Assembly: GCA_028715115.1 (NCBI GenBank)
Contig: JAQUSN010000002.1
Span: 210,816 to 274,815, forward strand
DNA from: Patescibacteria group bacterium
GTDB taxonomy: Bacteria > Patescibacteriota > Patescibacteriia > UBA2591 > UBA4787
Reading direction: 5' to 3'
Length of the DNA: 64,000 nucleotides
The notes under the pieces are model-generated. The model was given only the letters and a program-made list of their open reading frames with translations, had not been told where the DNA came from and did no database searches. Position 1 is the first letter of the stretch. The number at the start of each line of letters is the position of its first letter. Both the position numbers and the translations under genes were made by a program. Below, one piece after another: positions 3,031-62,050 of the stretch.

Positions 3031-3060
3031 TTGACAAAAATTAATAAAATGATAATATAT
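3031..3060 (+). promoter_or_regulatory. Consensus-like promoter of the 'TTGACAAAA..AAAATGATAATAT' family (cassette a).
   Basis: TTGACA at 3031-3036 and an AT-rich -10 about 17 nt downstream. The same architecture recurs at about ten other sites. Confidence 0.45.
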
Positions 3061-3080
3061 ATTTATCTGGAGGTTGAAGA

Positions 3081-3194
3081 ATGAACAGAAAGATGAGTCC
3101 CTTGGAGTTTCTCGCGGAGATTCTTGACACCATCAGAAACGTGATCGTTTTGGCTATAACAGCAGCTGGACTACTCTTCAATGTGGGCTGTTAG
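3081..3194 (+). CDS. Small hydrophobic peptide of 37 aa (MNRKMSPLEFLAEILDTIRNVIVLAITAAGLLFNVGC). GC-richer than its flanks.
   Basis: GGAGG ribosome-binding site at 3069-3073 with 7 nt spacing to the ATG. One predicted TM helix. A strong terminator follows. Confidence 0.45.
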   Translation: MNRKMSPLEFLAEILDTIRNVIVLAITAAGLLFNVGC

Positions 3195-3205
3195 TCCAGG
3201 CCAAA

Positions 3206-3238
3206 GGGCGGGTGTTCTCAACCCGCCCTGTTGTTTTA
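3206..3238 (+). terminator. Rho-independent terminator (GGGCGGGTGTTCTCAACCCGCCC + TGTTGTTTT).
   Basis: Perfect 8 bp GC stem followed by a T tract. Confidence 0.6.
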
Positions 3239-3243
3239 TCTAA

Positions 3244-3272
3244 ATATAAAAAGGCCTCTTCGTATGGCCTCT
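3244..3272 (-). terminator. Terminator downstream of ppdK (AGGCC..GGCCT stem followed by TTTTT on the minus strand).
   Basis: Hairpin followed by a T tract directly after the ppdK stop. Confidence 0.45.
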
Positions 3273-3287
3273 TTATATAGAAACAAC

Positions 3288-5948
3288 TTACTTAGATGTA
3301 TGCTCTATTTTTAATTTTCTTTTAACCACCGCCTGCGCCGCGGCAATTCTGGCAATCGGTACGCGATATGGAGAACAGCTGACATAATTCATACCTGCTT
3401 CATAACAAAACCCTATGCTAGCTGAATCGCCCCCATGCTCGCCACAAATTCCAATTTTTAAACCTTTCTTTACGCTTCGTCCCTTATTAATGCCAATTTT
3501 TACCAATTGCCCTATTCCCTCCTGATCTAAAGATTGAAACGGATCGGCTGCAATAATTTTTTTATTTAAATAAACCTTTATAAACTTACCTGAATCGTCG
3601 CGTGAAAAACCCATCCCCATTTGCGTTAAATCATTAGTACCAAAAGAGAAAAAATCCGCTTCTTGGGCAATTTGATCGGCTGTTACCGCGGCTCGCGGGA
3701 CTTCAATCATGGTGCCAACCAAATATTCAATCTTAGTTTTATATTGCTTCATAACTTCGGCGGCGATTTTTTTAACCACGTCTTTTTGATTTTTAAGCTC
3801 GTTAACATTACCGACCAATGGAATCATTATTTCCGGAACAACCTTAATATTTTCTTTTTTTAATTCACAGGCTGCAGAAATAATAGCCCGAACTTGCATC
3901 TCGGTAATTTCCGGGTAGGTGATGCCGAGCCGGCAGCCGCGATGACCAAGCATCGGATTAAATTCGTGAAGCTCTTGCGCCTTTGCCCAAATCTTTTCTT
4001 CGGAAATTTTTATTTTTTCCGATAACTCTTTGGCTTCTTTTTGATCCTTTGGCAAAAATTCATGAAGCGGCGGATCAAGGGTGCGAACCGTCACCGGATA
4101 ACCTCTCATCTCTTTGAATAATTCCTTGAAATCTTCTTTTTGAAATGGCAATAATTTATTTAAAGCCGCTCGTCTGGTTTCTTCGGTATCGGCAATAATC
4201 ATCTCCTGTATGTACGGCAGTCTATCTTTGTCAAAAAACATATGTTCGGTTCGGCAGAGCCCAATGCCTTCAGCGCCAAATATTCGCGCCATTTTAGCAT
4301 CGCGCGGCATATCGGCATTGGCTCGTACCTTTAATTGCTTAATTTCATCAACCCATTTCATTAATTGACCAAATTCTCCGCTTAAAGTTGGTTGCACAGT
4401 AGCCACTTTTCCCAAAATAATTTGACCGGTATTGCCATCAAGCGTCAGCCAATCACCTTCATTAACGATATTTTTACCTAAATGAAATTTTTTATTTTTT
4501 TCATCGACTTTCAGTTCTTCACAACCCACCACGCAACAACGGCCCATGCCCCTGGCCACTACGGCCGCATGACTGGTCATACCGCCTCTGGCGGTTAACA
4601 CTCCTTGCGCCACTTCCATACCGTGAATATCATCGGGGCAAGTTTCGGTACGCACCAAAATTACCGGTTTATCTACGCCTAAGGCTGTTGCCTCTTCGGA
4701 ACTAAACACAACATGACCGACTGCCGCCCCTGGTGAAGCCGGCAAACCTCGTCCAATAGCTTGCGATTTAATTTTTGGATCTAAGATTGGATGTAATAAT
4801 TGATTAATTTGCTCCGGCTCAACGCGTAAAATAGCCACCTCTTTGGAAATCATTTTTTCTTTTACCATATCAACGGCATTTTTTATGGCCGCTCGCGCTG
4901 TTCTTTTACCAGTACGAGTTTGTAGAATATACAGTTTATTTTTTTCTACCGTAAATTCAAAGTCCTGCACGTCTTTATAATGTTTTTCTAAACGCTTAGT
5001 AATTGTTTTTAGTTGCCTATATACCAGCGGCATATCTTTGGCTAAACTGGCGATTGGCTGTGGCGTTCTAACTCCCGCCACCACATCTTCGCCCTGGGCA
5101 TTAATTAAATATTCTCCATAAAATTGATTTTCGCCCGTAGCCGGATTTCTTGTAAAACCGACGCCGGTTGCGCAATCGTTGCCCATATTTCCAAAAACCA
5201 TAACCTGAATATTAACGGCCGTTCCTAAATCATCGGATATTTTATTTAAACGGCGATAAGTCTGCGCCCGAGGATTGTTCCAACTTTTAAATACGGCATC
5301 GCGCGCCATTTTTAATTGCTGATACGCATCGACCGGTAAATCATGTTTAGTAATTTCTCTGATTAATTTTTTATACTGACTGATTATCTCTTTTAAATCA
5401 TCTTCCCTTAAATCAAAGTCGTATTTAATATTCCTTTTTTCTTTTATTTCTGTAAGGATTTCTTCGAATTGTTCTTTGGCTATTCCCAAAACCACATTAC
5501 CGAACATTTGAATAAACCGGCGATAAGTATCATAAACAAATCGAGGATTTTTCGTGGTTTTGATTAGATTTACCACATTCTCATCATTCAAACCCAAATT
5601 CAAAATCGTATCCATCATGCCGGGCATAGAAAATCTAGCGCCACTGCGGACTGAAACCAATAACGGGTTTTTACTATCGCCTAATTTTTTATTAACGCTT
5701 TTTTCTATTTTTTTAAGCGCAGATTTTATTTGTTTGTCCAGTTCAGATGGTAATTTATTATTATGATCATAAAAATAATTACAAACCTCGGTAGTAATCG
5801 TAAAACCAGGCGGCACCGGTACTCCAGCCTTGGCCATATCAGCTAACCCCGCGCCCTTGCCTCCCAACGTGTCTTTCATTGTTATATTACCTTCAGTTTC
5901 ACGATCGCCAAAATAATAAACCAATTTCTGCGTTCTTTTTTTTGCCAT
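3288..5948 (-). CDS. ppdK: Pyruvate, phosphate dikinase.
   Basis: 886 aa. N-terminal ATP-grasp region, central phosphohistidine domain (GGMTSHAAVVARGMG) and C-terminal PEP-utilizing TIM barrel. Confidence 0.9.
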   Translation of the reverse strand: MAKKRTQKLVYYFGDRETEGNITMKDTLGGKGAGLADMAKAGVPVPPGFTITTEVCNYFYDHNNKLPSELDKQIKSALKKIEKSVNKKLGDSKNPLLVSVRSGARFSMPGMMDTILNLGLNDENVVNLIKTTKNPRFVYDTYRRFIQMFGNVVLGIAKEQFEEILTEIKEKRNIKYDFDLREDDLKEIISQYKKLIREITKHDLPVDAYQQLKMARDAVFKSWNNPRAQTYRRLNKISDDLGTAVNIQVMVFGNMGNDCATGVGFTRNPATGENQFYGEYLINAQGEDVVAGVRTPQPIASLAKDMPLVYRQLKTITKRLEKHYKDVQDFEFTVEKNKLYILQTRTGKRTARAAIKNAVDMVKEKMISKEVAILRVEPEQINQLLHPILDPKIKSQAIGRGLPASPGAAVGHVVFSSEEATALGVDKPVILVRTETCPDDIHGMEVAQGVLTARGGMTSHAAVVARGMGRCCVVGCEELKVDEKNKKFHLGKNIVNEGDWLTLDGNTGQIILGKVATVQPTLSGEFGQLMKWVDEIKQLKVRANADMPRDAKMARIFGAEGIGLCRTEHMFFDKDRLPYIQEMIIADTEETRRAALNKLLPFQKEDFKELFKEMRGYPVTVRTLDPPLHEFLPKDQKEAKELSEKIKISEEKIWAKAQELHEFNPMLGHRGCRLGITYPEITEMQVRAIISAACELKKENIKVVPEIMIPLVGNVNELKNQKDVVKKIAAEVMKQYKTKIEYLVGTMIEVPRAAVTADQIAQEADFFSFGTNDLTQMGMGFSRDDSGKFIKVYLNKKIIAADPFQSLDQEGIGQLVKIGINKGRSVKKGLKIGICGEHGGDSASIGFCYEAGMNYVSCSPYRVPIARIAAAQAVVKRKLKIEHTSK

Positions 5949-5963
5949 TTTATAATATATTAC

Positions 5964-6232: not shown

Positions 6233-6259
6233 TATAATTTTAGAAACGCGCCTCCATTC

Positions 6260-6550
6260 TTAGTGGCGTTTGCTTCGCGGCCGAAATTGTGGATGATGTT
6301 TGTGCCTCCTTTCATGATGACCATTACCATTGTCGCCAGCAATCGTGACCCACCAGATTTTACACTCAGCGCAGCTTCGTGTAATTACAACCTGGTGATT
6401 AACACGAACTACCGATTGACACTCGACTCCCGTGTTGAAGCAACGCGGGCAAAGCTTACTGTCTCTTCTGCCGGCATTGGCATATCCCTTATTCGGGAGT
6501 CCTGTATGCGTACACACCACTTCTGCAATATCTATGTAGAGTGTAGCCAT
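6260..6550 (-). CDS. GC-rich Cys-rich small protein of 96 aa with a possible zinc ribbon (CPRC...CAEC) and a His/Arg-rich tail. Coding strand is ambiguous: an overlapping ORF exists at 6263..6628 on the plus strand.
   Basis: On the minus strand, a TTGACA-N17-TATAAA promoter-like sequence lies directly upstream of the ATG. There are two CxxC pairs. The local GC is clearly above backbone. Confidence 0.3.
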   Translation of the reverse strand: MATLYIDIAEVVCTHTGLPNKGYANAGRRDSKLCPRCFNTGVECQSVVRVNHQVVITRSCAECKIWWVTIAGDNGNGHHERRHKHHPQFRPRSKRH

Positions 6551-6628
6551 AGTTATTTTATATTATATAAAATAAAAAATGTCAACAAATACTTGTTAAC
6601 ATTTAAGGTTAAAATAAATATATATTAA

Positions 6629-8639: not shown

Positions 8640-8683
8640 TTGTCAACTAATATTGACATAAGCGCATAAAATAATATAATTAA
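8640..8683 (+). promoter_or_regulatory. Promoter of the TTGACA family driving cassette c.
   Basis: TTGTCA/TTGACA at 8640-8659, followed by a TATAAT-like element around 8675-8680. Confidence 0.4.
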
Positions 8684-8684
8684 T

Positions 8685-8954
8685 ATGCCGTATCATTCAC
8701 CGCAAGCAAGAAAAGGAGCAATGATGTCTGTAACGGCCAAGGCGACCGTTTTTAAGCGCAGAGATACGTCGGTTATGACCGGCTGGCCAACTCGCGTCGT
8801 GAGACTTAAGGAGGACGAAACGCCACACGACCAGTCCCTGCACTTGGCGCATATCTGCGAATGCGACGCAGATGACCAGGCCAGAAAAGACGTTCTCTCC
8901 TTCTGGCTGCCCGAAAAATCCCTAAGAGAACACTACGAACCCGTGGAGGTGTAA
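8685..8954 (+). CDS. GC-rich small soluble protein. The start is more likely the ATG at 8724, which is preceded by AAGGAG.
   Basis: The ORF is bracketed by a consensus promoter and a strong terminator. No recognisable family. Confidence 0.45.
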   Translation: MPYHSPQARKGAMMSVTAKATVFKRRDTSVMTGWPTRVVRLKEDETPHDQSLHLAHICECDADDQARKDVLSFWLPEKSLREHYEPVEV

Positions 8955-8969
8955 ATGCGACCCAGCAAC

Positions 8970-9010
8970 AAGGGCCCTGACCGATAAGTCAGGGCCCCTT
9001 ATTTTTATTC
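8970..9010 (+). terminator. Strong rho-independent terminator (AGGGCCCTGAC..GTCAGGGCCCCT + ATTTTTATT).
   Basis: About 11 bp GC-rich stem followed by a T tract. Confidence 0.65.
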
Positions 9011-9025
9011 TCTTATAAATTAAGT

Positions 9026-9652
9026 CTACTTAGTAAATAATTTTACCAACCAGCCAAATAAGCTAAATTTATTTTCTTGAGTTTTAACAAAATTATTAAG
9101 TTGCGTTTGTTCTTGCTCTAAAGTATTAATCTGCTCCTGAATGGTTGTTTTAGTAGCGGTTGAATTAGTACTGTCTATTAGTCTATTTAGTTGATCTAAC
9201 CTATTTCTAGTCTGAACAATATCACTCCTTAAGGCGCCAAGATTTTTATAATCACTACCGATTAAAAATGTTTTTATTTTATTCCTATCTTGAATTTTCT
9301 TAATAGTCGCAGCAGTAGAAGTGACTGAATCGCTTTGCTGCTGTGCGATAATCCTAACCTGCTGACCAATTCCCCCGTTTCTATCGGCGGTTTGTAAAAG
9401 ATTTTGGACAAAATTTGCCACTGCGCTTCTGTGGGCTTCGGCCGTAATTTGCCCATTGTTTACCACAGGCACAGTCGGAGTGGCTGAGGTTGTCGGGATG
9501 GCGCTTCCTGAATTATTAAAAGTCTTTGGATTAATTTTACCCGCGTTATTATTCTGATTTTGCGATACGGCAAAACTTATATTAGATACCGAGAAGAAAA
9601 CAAAAAACGCCGCTAAAATTAATAGAATCGGTAGTTTTCTTACTTTATTCAT
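9026..9652 (-). CDS. Secreted coiled-coil protein (signal peptide). Paralog of 25108..25740.
   Basis: N-terminal signal/TM segment and a C-terminal region about 60% identical to the 25108..25740 product (ANFVQ.LL..ADR..GIG.QVR.IAQ.Q......KIQ.R..IKTFL.GSDYKNLGALRS..V.TRNRL.QLNRL...KFSLFGWL.KLF). Confidence 0.6.
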   Translation of the reverse strand: MNKVRKLPILLILAAFFVFFSVSNISFAVSQNQNNNAGKINPKTFNNSGSAIPTTSATPTVPVVNNGQITAEAHRSAVANFVQNLLQTADRNGGIGQQVRIIAQQQSDSVTSTAATIKKIQDRNKIKTFLIGSDYKNLGALRSDIVQTRNRLDQLNRLIDSTNSTATKTTIQEQINTLEQEQTQLNNFVKTQENKFSLFGWLVKLFTK

Positions 9653-9822
9653 ATGATTTTTATTACAAATTAACTATATATATTATATAATAAAAATAAA
9701 TACAATGTAAGATATCAAAAGTGGATAAAATTTCATTGATTTTTAAATAATTTATCCCTCCCAGGCAGGGGGATGCTTTCTTACATTCCCGCCTTCATTT
9801 TTAATTGCTATGTTGACAAAAG

Positions 9823-9851
9823 GGTAAAAATATGCTATATTTATATCATAA
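9823..9851 (+). promoter_or_regulatory. Promoter TTGACAAAAGGGTAAAAATATGCTATATT (cassette d).
   Basis: -35 TTGACA, 17 nt spacer, -10 TATATT. Nearly the same sequence as the promoter at 13285. Confidence 0.5.
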
Positions 9852-9867
9852 CCAAGGAGGCCTATAA

Positions 9868-10044
9868 ATGTTCGGATTCGGAAGCATCGGCGAATTGCTC
9901 AATGACCCCGCTGGTCCGATCTACTGCGGATTCATCCTGCTGGGTATAACGGTGATACTGGCAATCCCGGGACTGTTCATAGCGGCAATGCTGGACACAA
10001 GACGGGCGAAGAAAGAAGAAGAGGCAAAGGGTAGAGCCTCTTAA
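9868..10044 (+). CDS. Small membrane peptide of 58 aa (MFGFGSIGELLNDPAGPIYCGFILLGITVILAIPGLFIAAMLDTRRAKKEEEAKGRAS).
   Basis: AAGGAGG ribosome-binding site 7 nt upstream. One TM helix and a charged C-terminus. GC-rich. Confidence 0.5.
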   Translation: MFGFGSIGELLNDPAGPIYCGFILLGITVILAIPGLFIAAMLDTRRAKKEEEAKGRAS

Positions 10045-10127
10045 ACCAACCACGGAGGACTTGTTCTAGGTCCACCTCAACAGGTCGGTTCTGTAAAGGA
10101 GCCACTCGTAGGTGGGCCTTTGCTTTT

Positions 10128-10200
10128 ATACAAAAAGACGAGATTGTTCTCGCCTTGTTTTTTATATAAAAAGACGAGTGTTCTTGCTCGTCTTTTTATA
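10128..10200 (+). terminator. Tandem terminators of the 'AAAAAGACGAG..CTCG' family.
   Basis: AAGACGAG TGTTCTT GCTCGTCTT perfect hairpin followed by TTTTAT. An upstream partial copy is GACGAGATTGTTCTCGCC. Confidence 0.6.
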
Positions 10201-13284: not shown

Positions 13285-13313
13285 TTGACAAAATTATAAA
13301 ATATGCTAATCTA
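13285..13313 (+). promoter_or_regulatory. Promoter TTGACAAAATTATAAAATATGCTAATCT (cassette e, first unit).
   Basis: Close match to the promoter at 9823. Confidence 0.45.
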
Positions 13314-13346
13314 TATTCATTGATCGAGGGTCTAAAAAGGAGCTAC

Positions 13347-13409
13347 ATGAAGAAGCTGAAGCCCGATCTTACGTTGATGCACACCCTGTACTGCGCGAGC
13401 GGCGACTGA
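13347..13409 (+). CDS. Possible 20 aa leader peptide (MKKLKPDLTLMHTLYCASGD).
   Basis: Good ribosome-binding site (AAAAAGGAG) 6 nt upstream. Followed by an ORF-free GC-rich region. Confidence 0.25.
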   Translation: MKKLKPDLTLMHTLYCASGD

Positions 13410-13580
13410 TCGCGGACCCGGGCCGGCCCGAACCGGTCGATCCATGGAGGAATAATGAGCGGATTCGTCTAAGAACCAGCCAGGTGCGGGTAAAACCCGC
13501 ACTAGTCCCACAATTAGGGGATGGTTCGAACCGGCGAATACATCCCTGAAGGAGCGTCCTGTGGCGCTCCTTTTCTTTTA
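13410..13580 (+). ncRNA. GC-rich untranslated segment ending in a terminator (AGGAGCG..CGCTCCT + TTTTCTTTT). Candidate small RNA or cis-regulatory leader.
   Basis: No ORF. Internal repeats of 'CGAACCGG'. A terminator hairpin at 13549-13580. Confidence 0.25.
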
Positions 13581-13594
13581 TATTATAGCGTGGC

Positions 13595-13623
13595 TTGACA
13601 AAAAACGAAAAAATAAATAATAT
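13595..13623 (+). promoter_or_regulatory. Promoter TTGACA-N17-TAATAT (cassette e, second unit).
   Basis: The track ORF 13595..14116 begins with the TTG of this -35 box. The true start is more likely 13679. Confidence 0.45.
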
Positions 13624-13678
13624 AAATATGGAGAGTTTATTCTCTTTTTCGCAAAGCACGCAAAACACTGGAGGAACC

Positions 13679-14116
13679 ATGGCAGAAGCAACGATGAGGG
13701 TCAACCGCCCATCGCGGTATCAAGACATCGCCGGGATAGCAATCACTATCCTGATTATGATCTTGGTGGCCTCTCCCGGTCTATACCCGATGATCAAGGG
13801 AGGACTGGTGATGAGCGCCAAGACCTCGGGATGGTTGACTACCACAATTCTTGTCGCGTCCGTGATCGTAGGTGTGATAGCGATGTTTGTCCTGGCCGAA
13901 TGGGATGCCCGTTCCAACAGATTCCCTTTCGCCGCCTGGAAGGTCATCCTCTGTACCTACCTCCTCAACTTCATCGTCTCGCTCACTCTCACCTTTGCCG
14001 CCGCAAGATCACCGGCTCACATCGTCTGCGCAATCGTCGGTGGTCTCTACGTCGGCGTCGTCGCCTTCGTAATGCTGTGTCTGTGGGCTATAGGCAGCAC
14101 CGAGGCGGAGCTCTAG
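13679..14116 (+). CDS. GC-rich polytopic membrane protein (about 145 aa, 4 TM).
   Basis: GGAGG ribosome-binding site 4-5 nt upstream of the ATG at 13679. Hydrophobic segments. Followed by complex terminators. Confidence 0.5.
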   Translation: MAEATMRVNRPSRYQDIAGIAITILIMILVASPGLYPMIKGGLVMSAKTSGWLTTTILVASVIVGVIAMFVLAEWDARSNRFPFAAWKVILCTYLLNFIVSLTLTFAAARSPAHIVCAIVGGLYVGVVAFVMLCLWAIGSTEAEL

Positions 14117-14139
14117 TACGCCCTCGGAGAACAAAATAA

Positions 14140-14240
14140 GTAGGGCTCGCAGAAAGCAAAACCAAATGGGTTTCGCCTACTCGCGAGCCCATTTGATTAT
14201 TATAAAAAGACGAGATTACTCTCGCTTTCTTTTTTTTTGT
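14140..14240 (+). terminator. Nested hairpins plus a copy of the shared 'AAAAAGACGAGATTACTCTCGC' terminator module.
   Basis: GGGCTCGC..GCGAGCCC and AAATGGG..CCCATTT stems, then GACGAGATTACTCTCGC followed by T9. Confidence 0.5.
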
Positions 14241-14246: not shown

Positions 14247-14285
14247 GGGGGGCCCGCCTGTTGACGGACGCAACTAAACTATTAC
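14247..14285 (+). repeat. Degenerate copy of the dispersed TCTGGGGT..ATGCAAG..TTAGAACC element (GGGGGGCCCGCCTGTTGACGGACGCAACTAAACT).
   Basis: Shares the GGGG..CCGCC..TTGACGGA(C/T)GCA core with the copy at 16588. Confidence 0.35.
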
Positions 14286-16257: not shown

Positions 16258-16286
16258 CTTGACAAAAGCGCAAAATGTGATAAAAT
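16258..16286 (+). promoter_or_regulatory. Promoter TTGACAAAAGCGCAAAATGTGATAAAAT (cassette f).
   Basis: Family consensus. Confidence 0.5.
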
Positions 16287-16311
16287 GTAAATATTGAACT
16301 CAGGAGGCTTT

Positions 16312-16497
16312 ATGACAAAGATCAGGACTGCAAACTGGATGCTCTGGATAGGATGTACGGCCCTTGTTGTAGGGGTCATCCTCTGCTTCTACACACACCT
16401 AAGCTGGTGGAAGGTGACGATGACTGGGATTGGGGCTGCGTCTTTACTGACGTCCATCTCCCTCGACCCCAGGGTAGCCTTCCCTTTCTTGGGATAG
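16312..16497 (+). CDS. Small membrane peptide of 61 aa (MTKIRTANWMLWIGCTALVVGVILCFYTHLSWWKVTMTGIGAASLLTSISLDPRVAFPFLG).
   Basis: AGGAGG ribosome-binding site 5-6 nt upstream. Two hydrophobic helices. The track ORF 16294..16497 begins at an upstream TTG. Confidence 0.5.
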   Translation: MTKIRTANWMLWIGCTALVVGVILCFYTHLSWWKVTMTGIGAASLLTSISLDPRVAFPFLG

Positions 16498-16585
16498 GCT
16501 CACCAAGAGTCTCCAGCAAATGGGACTCGACGTGAGCCTTTTGCTTTTACAAAAAAAGACGAGATTACTCTCGCCTCTTTTTATC
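16498..16585 (+). terminator. Hairpin GGCTCAC..GTGAGCC followed by TTTTGCTTTT, then the shared 'ACAAAAAAAGACGAGATTACTCTCGCCTCTTTTTAT' module.
   Basis: Same terminator module as at 10128 and 14205. A variant occurs at 27661. Confidence 0.55.
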
Positions 16586-16587
16586 TT

Positions 16588-17795: not shown

Positions 17796-17868
17796 AGAAT
17801 TGACAAGCTGGAATATAGACTTACTTTTTTAATGATATTTTTATCTGAAATGAGCCACAGACGTTTGT

Positions 17869-18411
17869 CTATGGCTCATCTTCTGTTTCCTCTGTGTGGT
17901 CCACTATTGGGAAAACGCTCAGGATCATCACGCTTAGGACTTTTCTCGGCAACATTAGCGTCACCATCTCGCCCATTGTTTTGCCTAACAGTTGTTGAGC
18001 CAACGGAGAATCAACCGAGGCAAAACAAATCTCTCTTCCTTTAGATTCCCGATAGCGTGGGTTAAAAACCAGATCGGCGGCTCCTACGATCCCGTAAACA
18101 TCCATCTCTTGAGTGTCGATGTCCAGCGTTTTGGCGCACATTCCTGGCCTGACTGTTGGAAGAACTCCGCTTTCGGGCGGCAGGTCTTCGATGAACTTAG
18201 GATCGTGCAGAAATTGCCGAACCGTTGCCAGGTTCTGCATCCGGCTCTTTTGCTGCCGCAGCAGGTTCAACCAATCAGGATTGTCGTGCCAACCACCACC
18301 AGTCTCGTACGATCTCCCAACCTGTCCCGATACTCGCTCTAACTCCTTCATTAGACTTGCGTGTTCTTTTTGAAGGAGCATAAGCGTTTCTCGAAACATT
18401 ATGTTTTCCAT
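17869..18411 (-). CDS. GreA/GreB-family transcription elongation factor-like protein. GC-rich cassette g.
   Basis: C-terminal FKBP-like segment ICFASVDSPLAQQLLGKTMGEMV resembles the GreA 'ISVNSPIARGLIGK..' region. N-terminal coiled coil. AAAGGAGG ribosome-binding site. Confidence 0.6.
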   Translation of the reverse strand: MENIMFRETLMLLQKEHASLMKELERVSGQVGRSYETGGGWHDNPDWLNLLRQQKSRMQNLATVRQFLHDPKFIEDLPPESGVLPTVRPGMCAKTLDIDTQEMDVYGIVGAADLVFNPRYRESKGREICFASVDSPLAQQLLGKTMGEMVTLMLPRKVLSVMILSVFPIVDHTEETEDEP

Positions 18412-18449
18412 TAGACCTCCTTTCTAGACTATAGTAGCTCTCTCTAACA

Positions 18450-18485
18450 CTATTAATATATCATTTTTTTACTTTTTGTCAAGTA
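18450..18485 (-). promoter_or_regulatory. Promoter CTTGACAAAAAGTAAAAAAATGATATATTAAT (minus strand) for the GreA-like gene.
   Basis: Same family consensus as the plus-strand cassettes. Confidence 0.45.
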
Positions 18486-20696: not shown

Positions 20697-20760
20697 ATTT
20701 TGGGGTGGCTCCGCCATTCGCCAATCGGCGAAGGCAGATGCAAGAATGTTAGAACCTATT
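20697..20760 (+). repeat. Copy of the dispersed element (TTTTGGGGTGGCTCCGCC..GGCAGATGCAAGAATGTTAGAACCT).
   Basis: The left end TGGGGTGGCT equals the complement of the 3' end of tRNA-His at 29843. Contains the minigene ATGCAAGAATGTTAG. Confidence 0.5.
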
Positions 20761-21132
20761 TTGTTTTTTCCTTACCCAATTAATAATAAATAAAACTCCT
20801 ATAAAGAATGCCGGACCAGCAACCATTAAAATCCAAGATACCATATACCACTGAAATGAATCTTTTAATATATTAACCAATATTAATATAACATATAATA
20901 TACCGGCCATAATAAAGACAATTCCGCTAATGATCTCTCGTTTCCAAAATGTTATCAAAATAATTAATAGAATAAATACCGGGATATTATGTATAAATAA
21001 TCCTATAATTATTTGCCAAAAACTTAATTCGGGAGAAATAATATCAAGCGAAAATAAGGTTAAAAAAAAGATAAATATTATTGATAAAATTCTTGGCGCC
21101 CAATATATAAATTTATTTATTTTTTGATTCAT
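20749..21132 (-). CDS. Hypothetical polytopic membrane protein.
   Basis: Four predicted TM helices. No family recognised. Confidence 0.4.
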   Translation of the reverse strand: MNQKINKFIYWAPRILSIIFIFFLTLFSLDIISPELSFWQIIIGLFIHNIPVFILLIILITFWKREIISGIVFIMAGILYVILILVNILKDSFQWYMVSWILMVAGPAFFIGVLFIINWVRKKQNRF

Positions 21133-26637: not shown

Positions 26638-26898
26638 TTATTTTTGCTGGTCTTTCAGGGCAGCTTTTTCTTCACGAATTGCCGCCAGCTTTTCTTCAAG
26701 ATTTTTTTCTTCTTTTTCTAAAGCAGCTAGTTCATTTTTAGGAGAGATAAATCTTCTAAAACCGAAGCTATAGCCATAGCCGCATCCGCATCCGCAACCA
26801 CGGCCCCGCCTCATTCCCATACCACCACCGCAAGGACCCATCCCTCGACCAGTACCAGCACCTTGTCCCATTGGACCAGTTCCATCTAATTTTGGCAT
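26638..26898 (-). CDS. DUF5320-like Gly/Cys-rich protein with a C-terminal coiled coil.
   Basis: MPKLDGTGPMGQGAGTGRGMGPCGGG N-terminus and CGCGCG run typical of DUF5320. This family is commonly adjacent to DUF134. Confidence 0.55.
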   Translation of the reverse strand: MPKLDGTGPMGQGAGTGRGMGPCGGGMGMRRGRGCGCGCGYGYSFGFRRFISPKNELAALEKEEKNLEEKLAAIREEKAALKDQQK

Positions 26899-27014
26899 AG
26901 TTTTAAAGTTAGTTGTTGATAATGGCAGAGTGACCTTTATTATCCCTGCCTATTATGAATATATATTCAAAACTATCTTTTGTCAAATTATACCTGTGGA
27001 TAAGTTAAAATAAA

Positions 27015-27090
27015 AAAATCGCCTAATTAGCAACACTTTTTAGACTCAAGTCTTCTCTAGGTCCCTTATGCAAGGACGTTAGAACCCGGA
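27015..27090 (+). repeat. Copy of the dispersed element (..TCTCTAGGTCCCTTATGCAAGGACGTTAGAACCC). It is the left direct repeat of cassette h.
   Basis: 19 nt (27068-27086, ATGCAAGGACGTTAGAACC) identical to 27712-27730. Confidence 0.55.
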
Positions 27091-27119: not shown

Positions 27120-27147
27120 TTGACAAAAGGATAAAATGTGATATGAT
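27120..27147 (+). promoter_or_regulatory. Promoter CTTGACAAAAGGATAAAATGTGATATGAT (cassette h).
   Basis: -35 TTGACA, 16 nt spacer, -10 TATGAT. Confidence 0.5.
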
Positions 27148-27218
27148 ATAAGTACAGAATTCAATAGAGTCTTCTAATCCCTTGTCTCACGACAAGGATA
27201 TTCTCAAGGAGGTAACTC

Positions 27219-27605
27219 ATGAAAAAGCTGGCCCTGTTTGCAACGTATAGCGTTTTGACGTGGGGGTGCATTTTCGCCACGACCCACAAGCCCCTCCCTG
27301 GCCTCATCGGCATTCTGTTGTATGCAGTATTGGTTCTCTACTTCGATGTCGAGGACCGCAGATGGTGGGCTCGCAACCACAAACGGACACAGTCACCTGC
27401 ACCCAACTTCGACGTCATCACGGGATATAGTTGGCTGATGGTAGGCGCAGTCTCTTTCTTGGTGAGCCTACCCTTCATGCCAAGCACCGCCACCATCTTC
27501 CATGTCTTCGCTCCTACGTTTGTAACGACCATCATCGCCGGAGCTATCAACACGCTGATGAGACTACACCAAAACAGCCACGACCAGAAAGTCGTCAGAG
27601 GCTAA
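27219..27605 (+). CDS. GC-rich membrane protein of 128 aa.
   Basis: AAGGAGG ribosome-binding site 6 nt upstream. 3-4 TM helices. The 5' UTR contains a CCTTGTC..GACAAGG hairpin. Confidence 0.5.
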   Translation: MKKLALFATYSVLTWGCIFATTHKPLPGLIGILLYAVLVLYFDVEDRRWWARNHKRTQSPAPNFDVITGYSWLMVGAVSFLVSLPFMPSTATIFHVFAPTFVTTIIAGAINTLMRLHQNSHDQKVVRG

Positions 27606-27624
27606 GGCCTCGTTCCGACAAATA

Positions 27625-27698
27625 AGGGGACACGAACAGTAGCGTGACCCCTTTTCAGTTAACAAAAAAAGAGTAATCACTTACTCTCTTTTTATTTT
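27625..27698 (+). terminator. Two hairpins, the second being a variant of the shared module (ACAAAAAAAGAGTAATCACTTACTCTCTTTTTATTTT).
   Basis: AGAGTAA..TTACTCT stem flanked by an A tract and a T tract. Confidence 0.55.
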
Positions 27699-27735
27699 AA
27701 GGAGGTCACCTATGCAAGGACGTTAGAACCTGTTG
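27699..27735 (+). repeat. Copy of the dispersed element (AAGGAGGTCACCTATGCAAGGACGTTAGAACCTGTT). It is the right direct repeat of cassette h and contains an SD + ATG-CAA-GGA-CGT-TAG minigene.
   Basis: Identical 19-mer to the copy at 27068. Confidence 0.55.
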
Positions 27736-28175
27736 CGAAGTTGTTTAAGGTGAAAATTTAAAAACTTTCTTTGTTCCGAAATTATATTATTAGGCAACTT
27801 GTTAAAAATTGCTATTTTTGTAGCTTCTTTATTAAGTTTAAATTTTTCTGATTCGGGTTTACATAAAAGAGCTAAACCAATTGTTCGTCCATATCCCCGC
27901 TCTTTCCGTTCGCTAGGATATTCAATAAAGCCAATGCTTTTTATTATTTTAACCGAAACACCAATCTCTTCTTTAGAAATTCTAGTAGCCGCCCTTCTTA
28001 TCGTTTCGTTATACAAAACCGTTCCCCCTGGAATATGCCATTGATTATACCAGTGCGGAAGGTCTCTTAGAGTTAAGACTATTCCTTTTTTTGTTTTAAC
28101 AACAAGCTCAATGGTTAATCTTGGAACCTTGGAATATATTTGCTTAAATTCTTTTAAAGAAAATGGTTTTCCCAT
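27723..28175 (-). CDS. NUDIX-like hydrolase (GDP-mannose mannosyl hydrolase-like variant).
   Basis: Degenerate Nudix box GGTVLYNETIRRAATRISKEEIG. Adjacent to a glycosyltransferase. Confidence 0.45.
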   Translation of the reverse strand: MGKPFSLKEFKQIYSKVPRLTIELVVKTKKGIVLTLRDLPHWYNQWHIPGGTVLYNETIRRAATRISKEEIGVSVKIIKSIGFIEYPSERKERGYGRTIGLALLCKPESEKFKLNKEATKIAIFNKLPNNIISEQRKFLNFHLKQLRNRF

Positions 28176-37134: not shown

Positions 37135-37690
37135 AAACGAAGGGCCTGACTGCATAGTCAGGCCCCTGGACATGGAAAGGGGTCAAACGCCGAGTTCTCG
37201 TTGCTTCCACCAGAAAGACGAATGGAGGCCTAAAGAAGCCTTTGCCCTATCGCTTTCGAGTTGCACTGACTCGTTTACGAGAACCTGTGTGCCCGGTCAA
37301 CGAGTAAACCAAGCTTAAGCGCGCAACCCCAAATATAAGCCGATGGCTAAGGATCGCTCCGTGGACCGGTTGGGAACCAGCCGCGCAAAGAAAAGGAGCG
37401 AACTCAAATCAGATGCTGACACGCAAGGACTTTCGTTTGTCTACTATATGAAGTTAACGGAGGCACTTCACCCGCCCCGTTATAGCTCAGTTGGTTAGAC
37501 CTTGCGGTAAACACCGGAGGAAGGTTTGGGTATGAGTTGAGTCTTACCTCTCACCATCGGCGAAAACCTCCAAATGGCGCCAGAATTGAAACAGTGACAA
37601 GGGCGGACGCGATAGTGGTGAAATATCGATAGCTACGAAGCAGTAAGCCGCCACGTACGCCGCTCATTTCTGGCTTATTTAATATAACAT
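37135..37690 (-). ncRNA. ORF-free GC-rich region of about 550 nt bounded by terminators. Candidate structured RNA(s) or a decayed GC-rich cassette. Identity unresolved.
   Basis: There is no ORF of 60 aa or more on either strand despite elevated GC. A terminator (GGGCCTGACT..AGTCAGGCCC followed by T6 on the minus strand) sits at 37135-37170. The region contains GAAAGTCC, CGGCTTA and GGTGAGAGGTAAGA, which resemble RNase P RNA motifs, but in the wrong order for a canonical RNase P RNA. Confidence 0.2.
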
Positions 37691-37711
37691 TTTATAAATT
37701 AAAGTCCAGTG

Positions 37712-41213: not shown

Positions 41214-41229
41214 TATATTAAAATATCTT

Positions 41230-41263
41230 TAAAAAATAAAGGCGGCGCTTGCGCACCGCCTCG
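41230..41263 (-). terminator. Terminator of the GC-rich pyr island (GGCGGTGCGC AAGC GCGCCGCC + T tract on the minus strand).
   Basis: GC-rich hairpin directly after the PRTase stop. Confidence 0.55.
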
Positions 41264-41282
41264 GTTACTGACACCTTCCTGC

Positions 41283-42026
41283 CTACTGCCTTGTCTTGGC
41301 CATGGCCTCCATCAGTCGAGGCCACTCTGCCTTCGGTTTCAAGATCACGTTGCCGGCTGCGATGTCAGCCGCAACTGCCGGATCGTCCTGCTTCCACTGC
41401 TCGGTTGGCTTATTGACCAGAGCCACAACCGGCCTCTTTTCCCATTCCATTTTACCGGAACGGTTCAAGAAACAACCAACCCCAACCAGTCTTGCGCCGG
41501 TAGTCCCAATCGCAGCAGCGGCCTGACCGGTAGTAGAGTAGTTATTGCAGACATCTTCCACCAACAGGCATGGCGCATCGCGACCGATGTCATGACGCGA
41601 CAGAACCAGTTCGGACTGCTCGCGGCTCGTACCGGTAGCCAAGGCCGTCACCCTCTTCTCCAGGAAGGCAAACCGCTTACGCAGCGCCATCGCTACCAAA
41701 GCGGCCAATACGATACCTCCCATAGGTGCACCAATGACGACGTCGAATTGCGAATCGAAATCGCCATGACGCAACTCAAAGCCCAGTCTCTCGGCTTCTT
41801 GTCGAAGAACGTTGGGGTCTTGCTCGAGTGTAGCAACGTTGAAGTAAACGTCGCCGACATACTGCAGTTTCTGCCCATCAGATCCCTCGTAACGGCCAGC
41901 ATAACCGACTAGAGGTCCGAGACGCTTGCCGGTTATGGGGTCTCTTGGACAGGCATAGTAGCCACCCGCGGCATGAAGTATATCTAGCGGATCACTTGCC
42001 GGACCTATTTCTTCCATTTCATTCAC
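41283..42026 (-). CDS. Type I phosphoribosyltransferase, orotate phosphoribosyltransferase-like. GC-rich.
   Basis: PRPP-binding motif LLVEDVCNNYSTTGQAA. Directly downstream of pyrF. Confidence 0.5.
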   Translation of the reverse strand: MNEMEEIGPASDPLDILHAAGGYYACPRDPITGKRLGPLVGYAGRYEGSDGQKLQYVGDVYFNVATLEQDPNVLRQEAERLGFELRHGDFDSQFDVVIGAPMGGIVLAALVAMALRKRFAFLEKRVTALATGTSREQSELVLSRHDIGRDAPCLLVEDVCNNYSTTGQAAAAIGTTGARLVGVGCFLNRSGKMEWEKRPVVALVNKPTEQWKQDDPAVAADIAAGNVILKPKAEWPRLMEAMAKTRQ

Positions 42027-42050
42027 CTCCTTTCATTGGTGAGTTTGGAG

Positions 42051-42953
42051 TTATACGTGCTCGTCGCCAGCGGGAAAAGGAATGTCGCCGCCAGCCGCCC
42101 TGATCTGATCGCGTAGCTTCTCGGCTTCTGCGGCCGGATCGCTGGCGAAGATGATGCCGGACGATGAGTTGATGGTGATGGAACCGGGTCCTGCGAAAGC
42201 AGCCTTGACCGTCTCTTCGACGAATCCCTTCTGCGTTCCGATGCCCGGAATGAGCATCCACATCTCGTTGCCCACGATCTCCCTACATCTTGAAAGGTGC
42301 CAGAAGTAGACCTTGGACTCGTCGCTCGGATCCTTGTGAGCCGCGCCCATGACTACGCCGGCATTCTCGATGACCCCCAGCTCTTTCGACCACTGAAGCA
42401 GATTCTGGACCATGAACTCCCAGAAACGCAGACCGCTCTCCATCTTCGCATCCTAGATAACCCAGGCTTCTTTGTTGCTGGTCCGACCGAGGCCGACTAG
42501 TGCTCGACCCGGACGCTTTTCGTCGATCAGCGACATGAGCGTATCCTTGCCCATGTATCCGACGAAGTTCATCCCATCGGCGTTTTCGAGGCCGAGGTGA
42601 GTATTGCCGTAGAGCCTCTGAGTACGATCGATGTCGCCCCTCTTGCAGTCAACCATCACCGGAATGTCCGGATGATTCGCGTGGATGTAGCCGATGAGCA
42701 TCTTGAGAACCCCAAGCCCATCGGGAATTGCCTCCCAGTGAGCGTGCTGGAACTTGAACATCGACGCAGCGTGTTCGGTATCATCGATGACGCCCATCAT
42801 CCACAGATAGAGAGCGACATGCACAGCACATCCCATCTCCAGGAACCTGGACGGCATCCTCTCGATCAGCGGATCGAGGCCGACACAGACGAGGGAGTTT
42901 GCCCTCTTCTGCCTTTCTGTTAGCTTCTTGCGGAACCGTCTGTCTTCTGCCAT
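42051..42953 (-). pseudogene. pyrF: Orotidine-5'-phosphate decarboxylase (type 2 PyrF) interrupted by an in-frame TAG at 42444-42446.
   Basis: The upstream part has VCVGLDP and MVDCKRGDI (D-x-K-x-x-D). The downstream part has LIPGIGTQ. The two track ORFs (42453..42953 and 42051..42443) are in the same frame, separated by a single amber codon. Confidence 0.65.
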
Positions 42954-43034
42954 TACGAACTCCTTTGTGTTTGGTGTTTTTCCTAAAGAACAAGAGGCTA
43001 AGCCCTCCTAGCAGCTTTGCCCCCTCTATAATTA

Positions 43035-43063
43035 CATTATCCTGCTTTTTCTAGTTTTGTCAA
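43035..43063 (-). promoter_or_regulatory. Promoter TTGACAAAACTAGAAAAAGCAGGATAATG (minus strand) for the pyrF/PRTase island.
   Basis: Family consensus. AAGGAG ribosome-binding site before the pyrF ATG. Confidence 0.4.
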
Positions 43064-61037: not shown

Positions 61038-61174
61038 ATTTATATAATAAAATAATTTTCGTTAATTCAAGACTAACCTCAACTAACCAAAAAGTCCCGC
61101 TTGTCGCGGTCTAGGGGGCTATAGATCTGTAAAGATATTATAGCATAAATATAAATTTTAGCCAGAGATAAAAA

Positions 61175-61490
61175 GAGGAGGGCCAGCTTTCGCCGGCCCT
61201 CATTGCACTCCAGGTTGTAGTCTGTCTTTCGACAAGACCGAGCTCGCCATCCGAGACAACGATAGCCTTCTTAAGGCTTAGGTTATAACCCCGGCTGTTC
61301 GCCGAGCACCTGTTTTGTTGTCTCCGATAACTCGCCCGTATTCTAGTAGTCCTTCTCCACTGCGCCTCCATGGGGAGCCGCGCGACTCGACGCCGCACGA
61401 CGGTTTAGAGCTTCCGGATCTTGCTCGACCGTACAGCGCACCAGTGAAACACCGGCGCGGCGGACAGACGATATCCGTTAGGACGTATCC
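61175..61490 (-). ncRNA. GC-rich transcription unit of about 315 nt with a strong promoter and terminator but no credible ORF. Candidate small RNA.
   Basis: On the minus strand: promoter TTGACA-N17-TATTAA (61525..61497) and terminator GGGCCGGCGAAAGCTGGCCC followed by TCCTCTTTTTATC (61179-61201). The only long ORF (61138..61398) is Arg-rich and reads through the terminator. Confidence 0.3.
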
Positions 61491-61546
61491 ATGATTATTA
61501 ATATACCAAAAACAAAAAAAATGTCAAGGGATTTTTCCACAGACCT

Positions 61547-61571
61547 AACCCCCGCTTTCTTAGAAAGCGGG
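61547..61571. promoter_or_regulatory. Perfect 12 bp-arm palindrome CCCCCGCTTTCT t AGAAAGCGGGGG between divergent promoters, abutting the -35 box of the promoter at 61574.
   Basis: Perfect inverted repeat. It could be an operator or a bidirectional hairpin. Confidence 0.4.
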
Positions 61572-61573
61572 GG

Positions 61574-61602
61574 TTGACAAAAGCCAAAAAATATATTAAA
61601 AT
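61574..61602 (+). promoter_or_regulatory. Promoter TTGACAAAAGCCAAAAAATATATTAAAAT (cassette k).
   Basis: -35 TTGACA, 17 nt spacer, -10 TAAAAT. Confidence 0.5.
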
Positions 61603-61622
61603 AAAAACATTCAAGGAGGCCT

Positions 61623-62003
61623 ATGGCTCTTCCCATAACGAAAAATCCACCTACGACGATTAGTAGAGGTGACGTCATGAGGCGCCTAAGAGAATCCGGA
61701 AATCCTGTCTGGAGAAGCTTTGTCCTGCCAAGGCGCGAACATCTACGGCCCGATGAGAAACTCCGACTCTTCAGCTTCGCACCGGTTCAAGAGACTCTTC
61801 TGCCGATCCCCTTGTCAGTTGACGAACTGAGAATAGAAGCGATCGAAGGCGACCGGATCATCTTTGCCGATCCGTGGCAAGACGGCATTACGCCAAGACC
61901 CAGTCCGCTGTCCATCGTCGAAATACTCACAGACACAGTCAGGCTGACGCCGGAAGGAGAGTTCACGCTCTATCTGGTACGCCTTGAACGCCCCCGTCAC
62001 TAA
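61623..62003 (+). CDS. GC-rich hypothetical soluble protein (126 aa).
   Basis: AAGGAGG ribosome-binding site 3-4 nt upstream. Promoter and terminator bracket the ORF. No family. Confidence 0.45.
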   Translation: MALPITKNPPTTISRGDVMRRLRESGNPVWRSFVLPRREHLRPDEKLRLFSFAPVQETLLPIPLSVDELRIEAIEGDRIIFADPWQDGITPRPSPLSIVEILTDTVRLTPEGEFTLYLVRLERPRH

Positions 62004-62007
62004 TCGA

Positions 62008-62050
62008 AAGCCGGCTCGCGCTATACGCGGGCCGGCAATTAGTTTTTATG
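62008..62050 (+). terminator. Terminator GCCGGCTCGCG CTATA CGCGGGCCGGC followed by AATTAGTTTTT.
   Basis: About 11 bp GC stem with one mismatch. Confidence 0.55.

Follow-up and report, generated by a model that had tools for sequence, protein, structure and literature searches.

Shine–Dalgarno-led, GC-rich transcription units in an AT-rich Patescibacteria chromosome: most likely acquired, moron-like genes

Introduction

The phage 'moron' of Juhala and Hendrix is a gene with a sigma70-type promoter on one side and a factor-independent terminator on the other, placed between neighbouring genes, deviant in G+C content, independently expressed and exchangeable (PMC3714127). Here, we describe a set of short, GC-rich transcription units scattered over 64 kb of the chromosome of a Patescibacteria bacterium (candidate phyla radiation, CPR), for which phage morons are functionally the closest known system. 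We refer to this whole stretch of DNA as 'the window', and number positions from its first letter. The likeness lies in the order of promoter, gene and terminator, in the deviant G+C content and in independent expression, the last judged here by sequence only. Membership of the moron class fails because the carrier is not a phage. It is a CPR housekeeping chromosome, on which the units neighbour genes for pyruvate phosphate dikinase (PPDK), BacA, TypA, HisRS and UvrABC, and the window includes no phage genes and, marginal matches aside, gives no PHROG or IMG/VR hits. The units also differ from their host in the mode of translation initiation, with Shine–Dalgarno (SD) sequences in a genome of SD-less genes, a contrast that lies outside the moron concept. 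As to exchangeability, the slot upstream of typA has different contents in three related loci (L088, L091 and L163), and one unit (c11) is syntenic in a relative.

Horizontal gene transfer in Patescibacteria is documented; it occurs mostly among Patescibacteria themselves and mostly concerns genes without assigned function (PMC12455944). These transferred genes resemble the units in their atypical composition and mostly unknown function, but they are many-gene islands, or single genes found by phylogeny, and the paper on them describes no stereotyped frame of promoter, SD and terminator around single tiny genes, nor does it use the word 'promoter' (PMC12455944). Putative mobile promoters, as defined by Matus-Garcia et al. 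(2012), are stretches of 50-100 nt with >=80% identity that lie upstream of non-homologous genes (PMC3488235). In the window, too, similar promoters precede unrelated genes of one genome, but the best pairs extend over 46 nt at 78% identity, or 24-26 nt at 88-92%, and end at the promoter core.

Integron cassettes are promoterless open reading frames (ORFs) arrayed in one orientation, with an attC site at each 3' end and the integrase gene intI adjoining. The units share with them the modularity of small, unrelated ORFs, many of them ORFans, but they lack intI and attC, lie scattered in both orientations, have each a promoter and terminator of their own, and end in plain hairpin and T-run terminators. 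Miniature inverted-repeat transposable elements (MITEs) and other derivatives of insertion sequences (IS) match no better: the units have neither terminal inverted repeats nor target duplications, and the repeat that brackets one of them (c8) is a motif from the 3' ends of backbone genes. Classical genomic islands exceed 10 kb, adjoin tRNA genes, and have an integrase and direct repeats; the units measure 0.2-1.8 kb, have no integrase, and none of them abuts a tRNA gene. Type I toxin-antitoxin loci, finally, can be convergent RNAs that share a bidirectional terminator (e.g. the par locus of pAD1, and txpA/ratA). Tiny hydrophobic peptides (c1, c4 and c6), strong promoters, bidirectional terminators and a conserved 3' untranslated region (UTR) recall such loci, but neither an antisense RNA gene nor a promoter-like site in the right place was found, and only 3-4 of the 13 units fit.

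We consider it moderately probable that the units are autonomously expressed, fast-evolving, horizontally acquired genes, accompanied by two or three GC-rich non-coding RNAs and by a terminator module that was copied locally. We take acquired, moron-like genes as their most likely nature, in preference to a new kind of mobile cassette. An earlier, sequence-only reading of this DNA had taken them for a family of modular insertion cassettes; how its proposals fared is told with the evidence that bears on them.

Composition and translation signals

The GC content of the window is 38%, and its GC skew is negative across the whole length. A 120-nt GC scan, with a threshold of >=0.50, finds 12 islands of 50-55% GC, all of them in intergenic slots. 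These lie at 3091-3236, 6246-6549, 8679-9016, 9843-10142, 13301-14212, 16295-16647, 17854-18380, 27174-27663, 41211-42989, 61148-61515, 61610-62067 and 37119-37680. The last was absent from the list of GC-rich loci in the sequence-only reading, every member of which was recovered. The units that correspond to the islands are numbered c1 to c11 from left to right, c5 comprising two (c5a and c5b), and the additional one is called r37. Together they take up 11% of the window, and they cluster at 3-18.5 kb. The plus strand holds eight of them and the minus strand five, compared with 47 of the 48 backbone genes (and likewise nearly every long ORF) on the minus strand, so the difference in strand reported earlier is real. 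Near-random orientation of this kind is expected of additions that selection has not yet sorted.

The 13 ORFs of the units have a mean GC of 0.53 and a mean GC at third codon positions (GC3) of 0.64, compared with 0.37 and 0.33 for the 48 backbone ORFs. For both measures the ranges do not overlap (Mann-Whitney p=4e-8), and the suspected difference in composition is thereby borne out. Pooled GC at the three codon positions is.56/.42/.63 in the units and.45/.34/.34 in the backbone. The relation between genomic GC and codon-position GC is established, and the pattern in the units is that expected of genes from a genome of ~55% GC. The cargo proved to be as diverse as first described: three tiny membrane peptides (37, 58 and 61 aa) and two polytopic membrane proteins (145 and 128 aa), all hydrophobic; two soluble proteins; an ORF with four Cys; a GreA-like factor, confirmed by its GreA_GreB C-terminal domain; a pyrF/PRTase pair, confirmed as orotidine monophosphate (OMP) decarboxylase and phosphoribosyltransferase (PRTase); and ORF-less units at 61.2 kb and 37.1 kb, which are non-coding, with stops in all frames and no codon periodicity. 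The units thus appear to be what they had been taken for in this respect, compositionally foreign and self-contained transcription units with unrelated cargo.

The strongest contrast between units and backbone is not GC but the signals for translation initiation, a contrast that the earlier reading missed. An SD core is missing upstream of the start in 47 of the 48 backbone genes. By comparison, 12 of the 13 unit ORFs have an SD of 4-8 nt, typically AAGGAGG, after a leader of 25-90 nt. A count that does not depend on annotation agrees: the window has 16 sites at which an ATG comes 3-11 nt after GGAGG, and 14 of these sites are inside units. Starts at 7105, 17110, 24859, 28175, 29382, 36167 and 55444 illustrate the SD-less backbone genes. 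In six backbone genes, a complete promoter has its -10 box ending 4-10 nt before the ATG, the layout of a leaderless mRNA, and several genes of this layout are probably transcribed into leaderless mRNAs. The typA genes of many other CPR genomes are SD-less, too, and at other SD-poor CPR loci an SD precedes 9 of 10 ORFs in GC-rich islands versus ~13% of backbone ORFs. As far as could be found, a contrast between SD-bearing units and SD-less host genes has not been described before.

Promoters and terminators

The sequence-only reading attributed a single, stereotyped promoter to the units. The motif TTGACAAAA does occur 11 times in the window, compared with 1.6 expected, and 0 of 100 shuffles reach 11; a GC island follows nine of the copies directly, and of the other two, one precedes a DUF5320 gene and one falls within a gene. 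The promoters therefore have a recognisable style, as claimed, but the similarity ends at the core and the motif is not confined to the units. Alignment restricts the similarity to the stretch from -35 to -10, with nothing in common upstream of -35. The units at 6585 (minus), 8653 (plus), 61527 (minus) and 37708 (minus) have good sigma70 matches that are not of the TTGACAAAA form. Together with an extended -10, TTGACAAAA is found also upstream of the housekeeping gene typA in other CPR genomes (L089, L090 and L093); since it drives typA there, it is the strong-promoter form of the clade and not the signature of a mobile element. Within this genome, the unit promoters nevertheless form a class of their own, because their spacers are A-rich (…AAAATGTGATAnnAT) where those of backbone promoters are T-rich (…TTTTTTGATAGAAT; p=0.006). 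Mean promoter identity is 0.67 within the set of units, a modest excess over the 0.56 to the backbone and the 0.58 to other genomes. The closest pairs are c6/c8 (46 nt at 78%; pair D8) and short pairs of 24-26 nt at 88-92%, among them c1/c7 (24 nt at 92%). The resemblance among the promoters is mostly the strong-promoter consensus of the clade, then, and only a few pairs show real copying within the genome.

Hairpins rich in GC and followed by a T-run are predicted for most units. Four units had been said to end with the same terminator. Three do: the 21-nt core AAAAAGACGAGATTRYTCTCG is exact at 10132, 14204 and 16553 (0.12 occurrences expected), and in the alignment of these units (c4, c5b and c6) ~60-90 nt of the 3' UTR are homologous, part of the first hairpin included. 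The fourth site, 27661, is a loose variant of the module, with ACAAAAAAAGA, TTACTCTC and TTTTTAT as its common parts. The module is located between the unit and a converging backbone gene; it is a hairpin that works in both directions by its layout, with an A-run on one side and a T-run on the other. It is clearly copied DNA, the only such DNA apart from the few promoter pairs, and it reads as an insulator of which local copies were made over a span of 6.5 kb.

A second repeated intergenic module, ACCCCAGA...TTTTTATTATAACTATTGCCATTTRGGC...TGATAGAAT, is present at 24863-24919, 25773-25829 and 28179-28235, where it holds the promoters of three unrelated backbone genes. Regulatory modules have therefore been copied outside the GC-rich units, too.

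The host population and its relatives

The gene content of the backbone is the housekeeping set of a reduced bacterium. DNA polymerase X, PPDK, BacA, TypA/BipA, a P-type ATPase, a ribonucleotide reductase fragment, several NUDIX proteins and a MacB-type ABC transporter are among its proteins; HisRS, UvrABC, DnaJ and a type IV pilin we read from the translations, and matches to the UvrB and UvrA families were obtained by profile on the same DNA. Exact-protein look-ups find this DNA in two NCBI metagenome-assembled genomes (MAGs) labelled Patescibacteria group bacterium (GCA_028686935.1 and GCA_028713815.1), and several Logan assemblies of SRR22315506-9 contain it, too. The two MAGs are identical or 99.96% identical to it, as are six or more independent Logan contigs that span junctions between units and backbone. 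A search of the literature for the accessions returned nothing. Contigs with identical proteins all belong to one population (99.9-100% identity). The closest other TypA proteins come from Patescibacteria MAGs; the best one outside the population is 90% identical, on a contig of 2.4 kb, and the next ones are at most 73% identical. From these matches, the window is natural chromosomal DNA of a CPR bacterium, neither phage nor construct, and the synthetic origin that had earlier been left open is excluded.

Comparison with the sister MAG GCA_028713815.1 (L177, L087) reveals seven single-nucleotide polymorphisms (SNPs) clustered at a contig end (58254-58320, inside uvrA) and nine others. We set the uvrA cluster aside as possible assembly noise, a judgement and not a result. 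All nine of the remaining SNPs lie in c1, c4 and c8, and ~29 kb of backbone are identical. Those of c1 are at 3200, 3261, 3263 and 3265; that of c4, at 10030, changes G55C; and those of c8 (27276-27396) make three amino-acid changes, all to threonine (A20T, K55T and P60T). Five SNPs hence yield four coding changes, all four protein-altering. Such a concentration of strain variation in the units is undescribed as far as could be found, and we infer that the cargo evolves fast.

Between genomes, the evidence for presence and absence is divided. The slot upstream of typA holds c6 in the window and different DNA in L088, the closest relative. Between the collinear loci L163 and L091 (~81% nucleotide identity) this slot differs as well: L163 has a GC-rich, SD-bearing unit of 299 aa with the promoter TTGACAAATCTTAAATATTATGCTATACT, and L091 an AT-rich, SD-less ORF. 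The polymorphism anticipated by the earlier note is thus found at this slot, but not at c11, which is syntenic in a relative. More widely, the architecture of GC-rich units recurs in related CPR genomes and across CPR lineages, and similar units occur in unrelated environmental CPR genomes.

For the pyrF/PRTase pair (c9), homologues of the PRTase number in the hundreds, and most of the named ones are from CPR. In the CPR genomes L168 (38% GC) and L171, the pair is an SD-bearing island of 52-55% GC, and in L172 and L174 it has native composition, from which we conclude that the pair has a GC-rich version that moves from one AT-rich CPR genome to another. The idea that the pair is GC-rich in every CPR genome was rejected on account of L172 and L174. 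In the window, pyrF has an in-frame TAG at 42453-42455 (minus strand; ...AWVI*DAKMESG...) where its relatives read on. This is either a nonsense mutation or a site of read-through; it may have arisen from CAG by a C-to-T change, and a gene cut in this way fits the decay of a dispensable acquisition.

Two further observations concern these relatives. A hairpin and T-run lie between promoter and start codon in the typA leader (window 16155-16179, minus strand) and recur in L089, L090, L091, L093 and L163; they may be a conserved attenuator. And L091 (14365-16044) and L163 (14712-16391) carry a GC-rich, SD-led island ORF of 559 aa that is 90.7% identical between them, compared with ~81% for the backbone. 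We read the protein as putatively TROVE/Ro60-like. An element of ~75 nt lies just downstream of its gene, with three more copies in L163 (17898-17953, 18619-18694 and 19078-19154), and might be a Y-RNA-like partner of the protein.

Mobility hallmarks and homology searches

Genes for integrase, transposase or reverse transcriptase were not found in the 64-kb window or in 15 kb of flanking DNA, nor were attC-like sites or terminal inverted repeats found at the units. Flanking direct repeats above background occur at one unit of 11, c8 (28 nt; score 22, compared with a null maximum of 10), and many backbone genes have a copy of this repeat, D3, at their 3' ends. With promoter similarity limited to the core as well, the dedicated mobile or integron-like mechanism put forward in the sequence-only reading is not upheld.

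Sites of the D3-type motif are 14250-14285, 16600-16655, 17745-17795, 20730-20760, 24930-24960, 25820-25855, 27060-27090, 27704-27734 and 29430-29460. On the minus strand the motif reads ...ACAGGTTCTAACGTCCTTGCAT.GG.ACC..., and some copies have a hairpin inserted in mid-motif. At least two genes (20749..21132 and 27723..28175) take their stop codon from the TAA of this motif, which matches no known family.

Homologues of the units are scarce. Pattern scans of IMG/VR for the promoter and terminator modules gave no match, and neither these modules nor the D3 motif were found in ~170 fetched related loci. Protein scans of IMG/VR with c7, c11 and c5b, and tblastn against GenBank phages, gave no match either, and Pfam, PHROG and PADLOC returned nothing for most cargo ORFs. 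The matches that did appear are marginal: c8 to phrog_25953 (E=0.0087) and c2 to TniQ (E=0.0056). No relatives of c8 and c7 were found among 5.8 billion clusters, and c11 has a single relative among 1.8 billion representatives. Toxin and defence profiles had no match among the small cargo proteins.

Structured non-coding RNAs are GC-rich in AT-rich genomes for structural reasons. The ORF-less units c10 and r37 fold better than their shuffles (z=-4.2 and -3.0), and these two, and perhaps c5a, are probably structured non-coding RNAs native to the AT-rich genome, not foreign genes. At gathering thresholds, an Rfam scan of the window finds three tRNAs only, and lax scans of 37.05-37.76 kb and 61.1-61.56 kb find matches at chance level only; by these scans, RNase P, tmRNA, 6S, SRP and known riboswitches are ruled out as the identity of the ORF-less islands. 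No homologues of the r37, c10 and c5a RNAs were found among the fetched loci.

Origin of the units

We picture the window as part of an AT-rich CPR chromosome whose own genes would be translated without an SD, several of them probably from leaderless mRNAs, and in whose intergenic slots ~10 self-contained, moron-like units sit scattered. By sequence, each consists of a sigma70 promoter close to the consensus, whose -10 is extended and whose spacer is A-rich, a leader of 25-90 nt with a canonical SD, a GC-rich ORF or short operon, and a GC-rich intrinsic terminator, which is often doubled. The coding units would most likely be xenologues, gained by ordinary horizontal transfer and slot-wise replacement in the CPR gene pool, and then retained as independently expressed, fast-evolving accessory genes; apart from a pyrF/PRTase pair in decay, these are chiefly ORFans and genes for small membrane proteins. 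Their expression would be independent of the flanking operons: the outer bidirectional hairpin would stop the transcript of the unit as well as the converging backbone transcript, and so insulate the unit. If the host initiates on unstructured, AU-rich or leaderless starts, GC-rich, structured foreign mRNAs would need a strong SD, and GC-richness and SD would be retained together because such mRNAs would be translated only with one.

Several results weigh against this account. No donor was identified for any small ORF. GC-rich CPR genomes, considered as SD-using donors, were rejected because they are as SD-poor as AT-rich ones, and ordinary CPR chromosomal genes are therefore no obvious source of SD-bearing genes. 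The sole homologue of the 126-aa c11 protein, on a JGI contig, is 60% identical, adjoins the same methyltransferase and Gmad2/Germane genes, and has the same GC-rich type of amino-acid composition. At the least, c11 is older than a species-level split and has not ameliorated, or it has been replaced allele for allele; purely recent transfer does not predict an old gene with such a composition. For one unit at least, the 'recent' insertion proposed in the sequence-only reading hence does not stand. Both the 3' module that units have in common and their class of promoters with A-rich spacers, moreover, hint at more than independent acquisitions. Together, the synteny of c11, the SD-poor state of GC-rich CPR genomes and the empty searches for phage and plasmid relatives keep two of the rivals alive, a native class and a dedicated pool.

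The first of these supposes that the units are a native, lineage-conserved class of leadered, SD-dependent, strongly transcribed genes for small membrane or secreted proteins, along with non-coding RNAs, and that their GC is kept by selection. Such selection could act on the stability or structure of the mRNA or RNA, or on a translational regime separate from that of the leaderless bulk. We think this unlikely, if deserving of serious attention. Conservation of c11 in place and in composition suits it, as does the recurrence of the architecture across CPR lineages; perfect SDs and near-consensus promoters that persist under AT-biased decay imply selection in the host, and the ORF-less members fold better than shuffles. 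But GC3, the least constrained position, is the one raised most, the units are ORFans with almost no homologues, and their orientation is random. Nor would a native class readily accommodate pyr genes that have native composition in other CPR genomes, a typA slot whose cargo differs between relatives, or a nonsense codon in pyrF.

The second supposes that Patescibacteria whose own genes are largely leaderless and do without an SD may draw on a distinct, common pool of GC-rich, SD-dependent genes, which would circulate and be placed into intergenic slots within a standard frame, namely a TTGACAAAA promoter whose spacer is A-rich, a consensus SD, and a bidirectional terminator in doubled form. 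We hold this to be rather improbable. If true, the pool would be an undescribed system of gene capture and expression, or an orthogonal translation class, and it would supply rapidly diversifying small membrane proteins for the interface between symbiont and host.

That one dedicated mechanism (site-specific recombination, integron-like capture, or a non-autonomous transposon) brought in mobile insertion cassettes with a standard promoter and terminator is improbable as well. The terminator module at three sites with its common 3' UTR, the c6/c8 and c1/c7 promoter pairs, the higher promoter identity within the set, the clustering at 3-18.5 kb and the direct repeat around c8 are what speak for it. 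Set against these are the missing integrase, transposase and reverse transcriptase genes, attC sites and terminal inverted repeats; the 10 of 11 units whose flanks have no repeats above background; the origin of the c8 repeat in a multi-copy backbone motif; and promoters that have nothing in common upstream of -35 and whose motif drives typA elsewhere. The modules are absent, besides, from 170 related loci and from IMG/VR.

A subset (c1, c4, c6 and perhaps c5a) might be type I toxin-antitoxin-like, or encode other small toxic membrane peptides, with the 3' UTR and terminator as the target of an antisense RNA. The peptides of 37-61 aa with one hydrophobic helix, the strong promoters, the bidirectional outer terminator, and a 3' UTR that is conserved in c4, c5b and c6 while their ORFs are unrelated all suit this idea. 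It is very doubtful all the same: between the terminators and the converging backbone gene, neither an antisense promoter nor a gene for a small RNA can be fitted in, the toxin and defence profiles match nothing, and soluble, enzymatic and non-coding cargo would be left unexplained. The chance of an assembly chimera, contamination or engineered DNA is negligible, for however 'designed' the units appear, with their consensus promoters, consensus SDs and strong terminators, the same or nearly the same sequence stands in two MAGs and in independent Logan contigs that cross their junctions, and similar units are found in unrelated environmental CPR genomes.

Individual units

The units of the left-hand cluster begin with c1 (3031..3240, plus), in which promoter TTGACAAAAATTAATAAAATGATAATAT and SD GGAGG precede a 37-aa, one-helix membrane peptide (3081-3194) and a hairpin terminator (3205-3229). 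Unit c2 (6260..6590, minus) has a promoter of TTGACATTTTTT type (6585), no SD, and a 96-aa ORF with four Cys (6260-6550); it is an atypical member, because its codon periodicity is weak despite a GC of 0.49. Unit c3 (8653..9005, plus) has a perfect TTGACA-16-TATAAT promoter, a soluble ORF of 77-89 aa (from 8685 or 8721 to 8954), and a terminator at 8972-8997. In c4 (9813..10200, plus), a TTGACAAAAGGG...ATGCTATATT promoter and SD AAGGAGG lead to a 58-aa membrane peptide (9868-10044), followed by a hairpin of its own, the shared terminator module (10128-10160) and a second, bidirectional hairpin (10165-10199).

Both c5 units, on the plus strand, have a TTGACAAAA promoter. In c5a (13285..13580), it is followed by an SD, a 20-codon ORF (13347-13409), 140 nt of GC-rich, untranslated sequence, and a terminator (13548-13573); in c5b (13595..14235), by SD GGAGG, a 145-aa membrane protein with four helices (13679-14116), its own hairpin, and the shared terminator module (14196-14235). 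The promoter of c6 (16259..16585, plus), TTGACAAAAGCGCAAAATGTGATAAAAT, stands back to back with that of typA; SD AGGAGG, a 61-aa membrane peptide (16312-16497) and the shared module (16545-16584) complete the unit. Unit c7 (17845..18482, minus) comprises a TTGACAAAAAGTAAAAAAATGATATATT promoter, SD AAGGAGGT, a 180-aa protein with the GreA/GreB C-terminal domain (17869-18411), and a 3' hairpin. AlphaFold models of the c7 and c11 proteins have pLDDT values (predicted local distance difference test) of 38 and 43, respectively.

The plus-strand unit c8 (27120..27692) has promoter TTGACAAAAGGATAAAATGTGATATGAT, a 70-nt 5' UTR, SD AAGGAGGT, and a 128-aa polytopic membrane ORFan (27219-27605); its hairpin is followed by the loose variant of the terminator module (27661-27690). 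The 28-nt direct repeats that bracket it are at 27059..27086 on the left (D3 motif, ...ATGCAAGGACGTTAGAACC) and 27703..27730 on the right, both on the plus strand, the latter overlapping the stop codon of a minus-strand NUDIX gene. Nearby, at 26638..26986 (minus), is a borderline member of the set: a TTGACAAAA promoter, no SD, and an 86-aa, Gly/Cys-rich DUF5320 protein with a GC3 of only 0.29.

Unit r37 (37135..37708, minus), the one absent from the earlier note, has a TGGACT-16-TATATT promoter with a TG extension, a GC-rich, ORF-less transcript of ~540 nt, and a strong, 12-bp terminator (37167-37140). On its plus strand, this island has GTTATAGCTCAGTTGGTTAGACC, a sequence similar to the 5' half of a tRNA. 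Unit c9 (41235..43063, minus) starts with a TTGACAAAACTAG... promoter (43063) and a 90-nt 5' UTR. Its genes, of GC 0.56-0.58, are the pyrF-like OMP decarboxylase, split by the in-frame TAG (42953-42453 and 42443-42051), and the PRTase (42026-41283), followed by a terminator (41262-41239). A hairpin and then a T-rich run at 42991-43010 (minus strand) in its leader may be a transcription attenuator. At the right end, c10 (61170..61527, minus) has a TTGACATTTTTTTT... promoter with extended -10, a GC-rich non-coding transcript of ~320 nt, and a terminator (61201-61178), and c11 (61574..62045, plus) has a TTGACAAAAGCC... promoter that abuts a hairpin, SD AAGGAGG, a 126-aa soluble protein (61623-62003), and a terminator (62010-62036).

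Other features of the window

Two ORFs are far more AT-rich than the backbone, a deviation opposite in direction to that of the units: 51887-52627 (GC 0.24), with no Pfam match, and 20749-21132 (GC 0.25), which matches DUF7670 (PF24709). At 31302-32011 (minus), a gene for a PolB-type 3'-5' exonuclease/RNase H-like protein is split into two ORFs that overlap by 34 nt, and may be a frameshift or a pseudogene. The gene for a 746-aa surface protein contains an internal repeat of 179 nt (91%; 11523-11701 and 12468-12646), and that for a 210-aa protein, a paralogue of 9026..9652, contains a 12-nt tandem repeat at 25532-25642.

Implications

Little is known of how CPR bacteria, which depend on other cells and whose genomes are tiny, acquire new genes and express them. 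The window presents a natural contrast within one chromosome, between an AT-rich, SD-less bulk and GC-rich, SD-led units that are individually promoted and terminated. Its ORF-less units are candidates for new structured RNAs without an Rfam family. If the contrast is true genome-wide, it would offer a test case for the translation of foreign, structured mRNAs where SD pairing is normally unused, and an SD in an SD-less genome, combined with high GC, would be a simple rule for finding accessory, fast-evolving genes. Much of this accessory set consists of small membrane proteins with a possible role in contact with the host.

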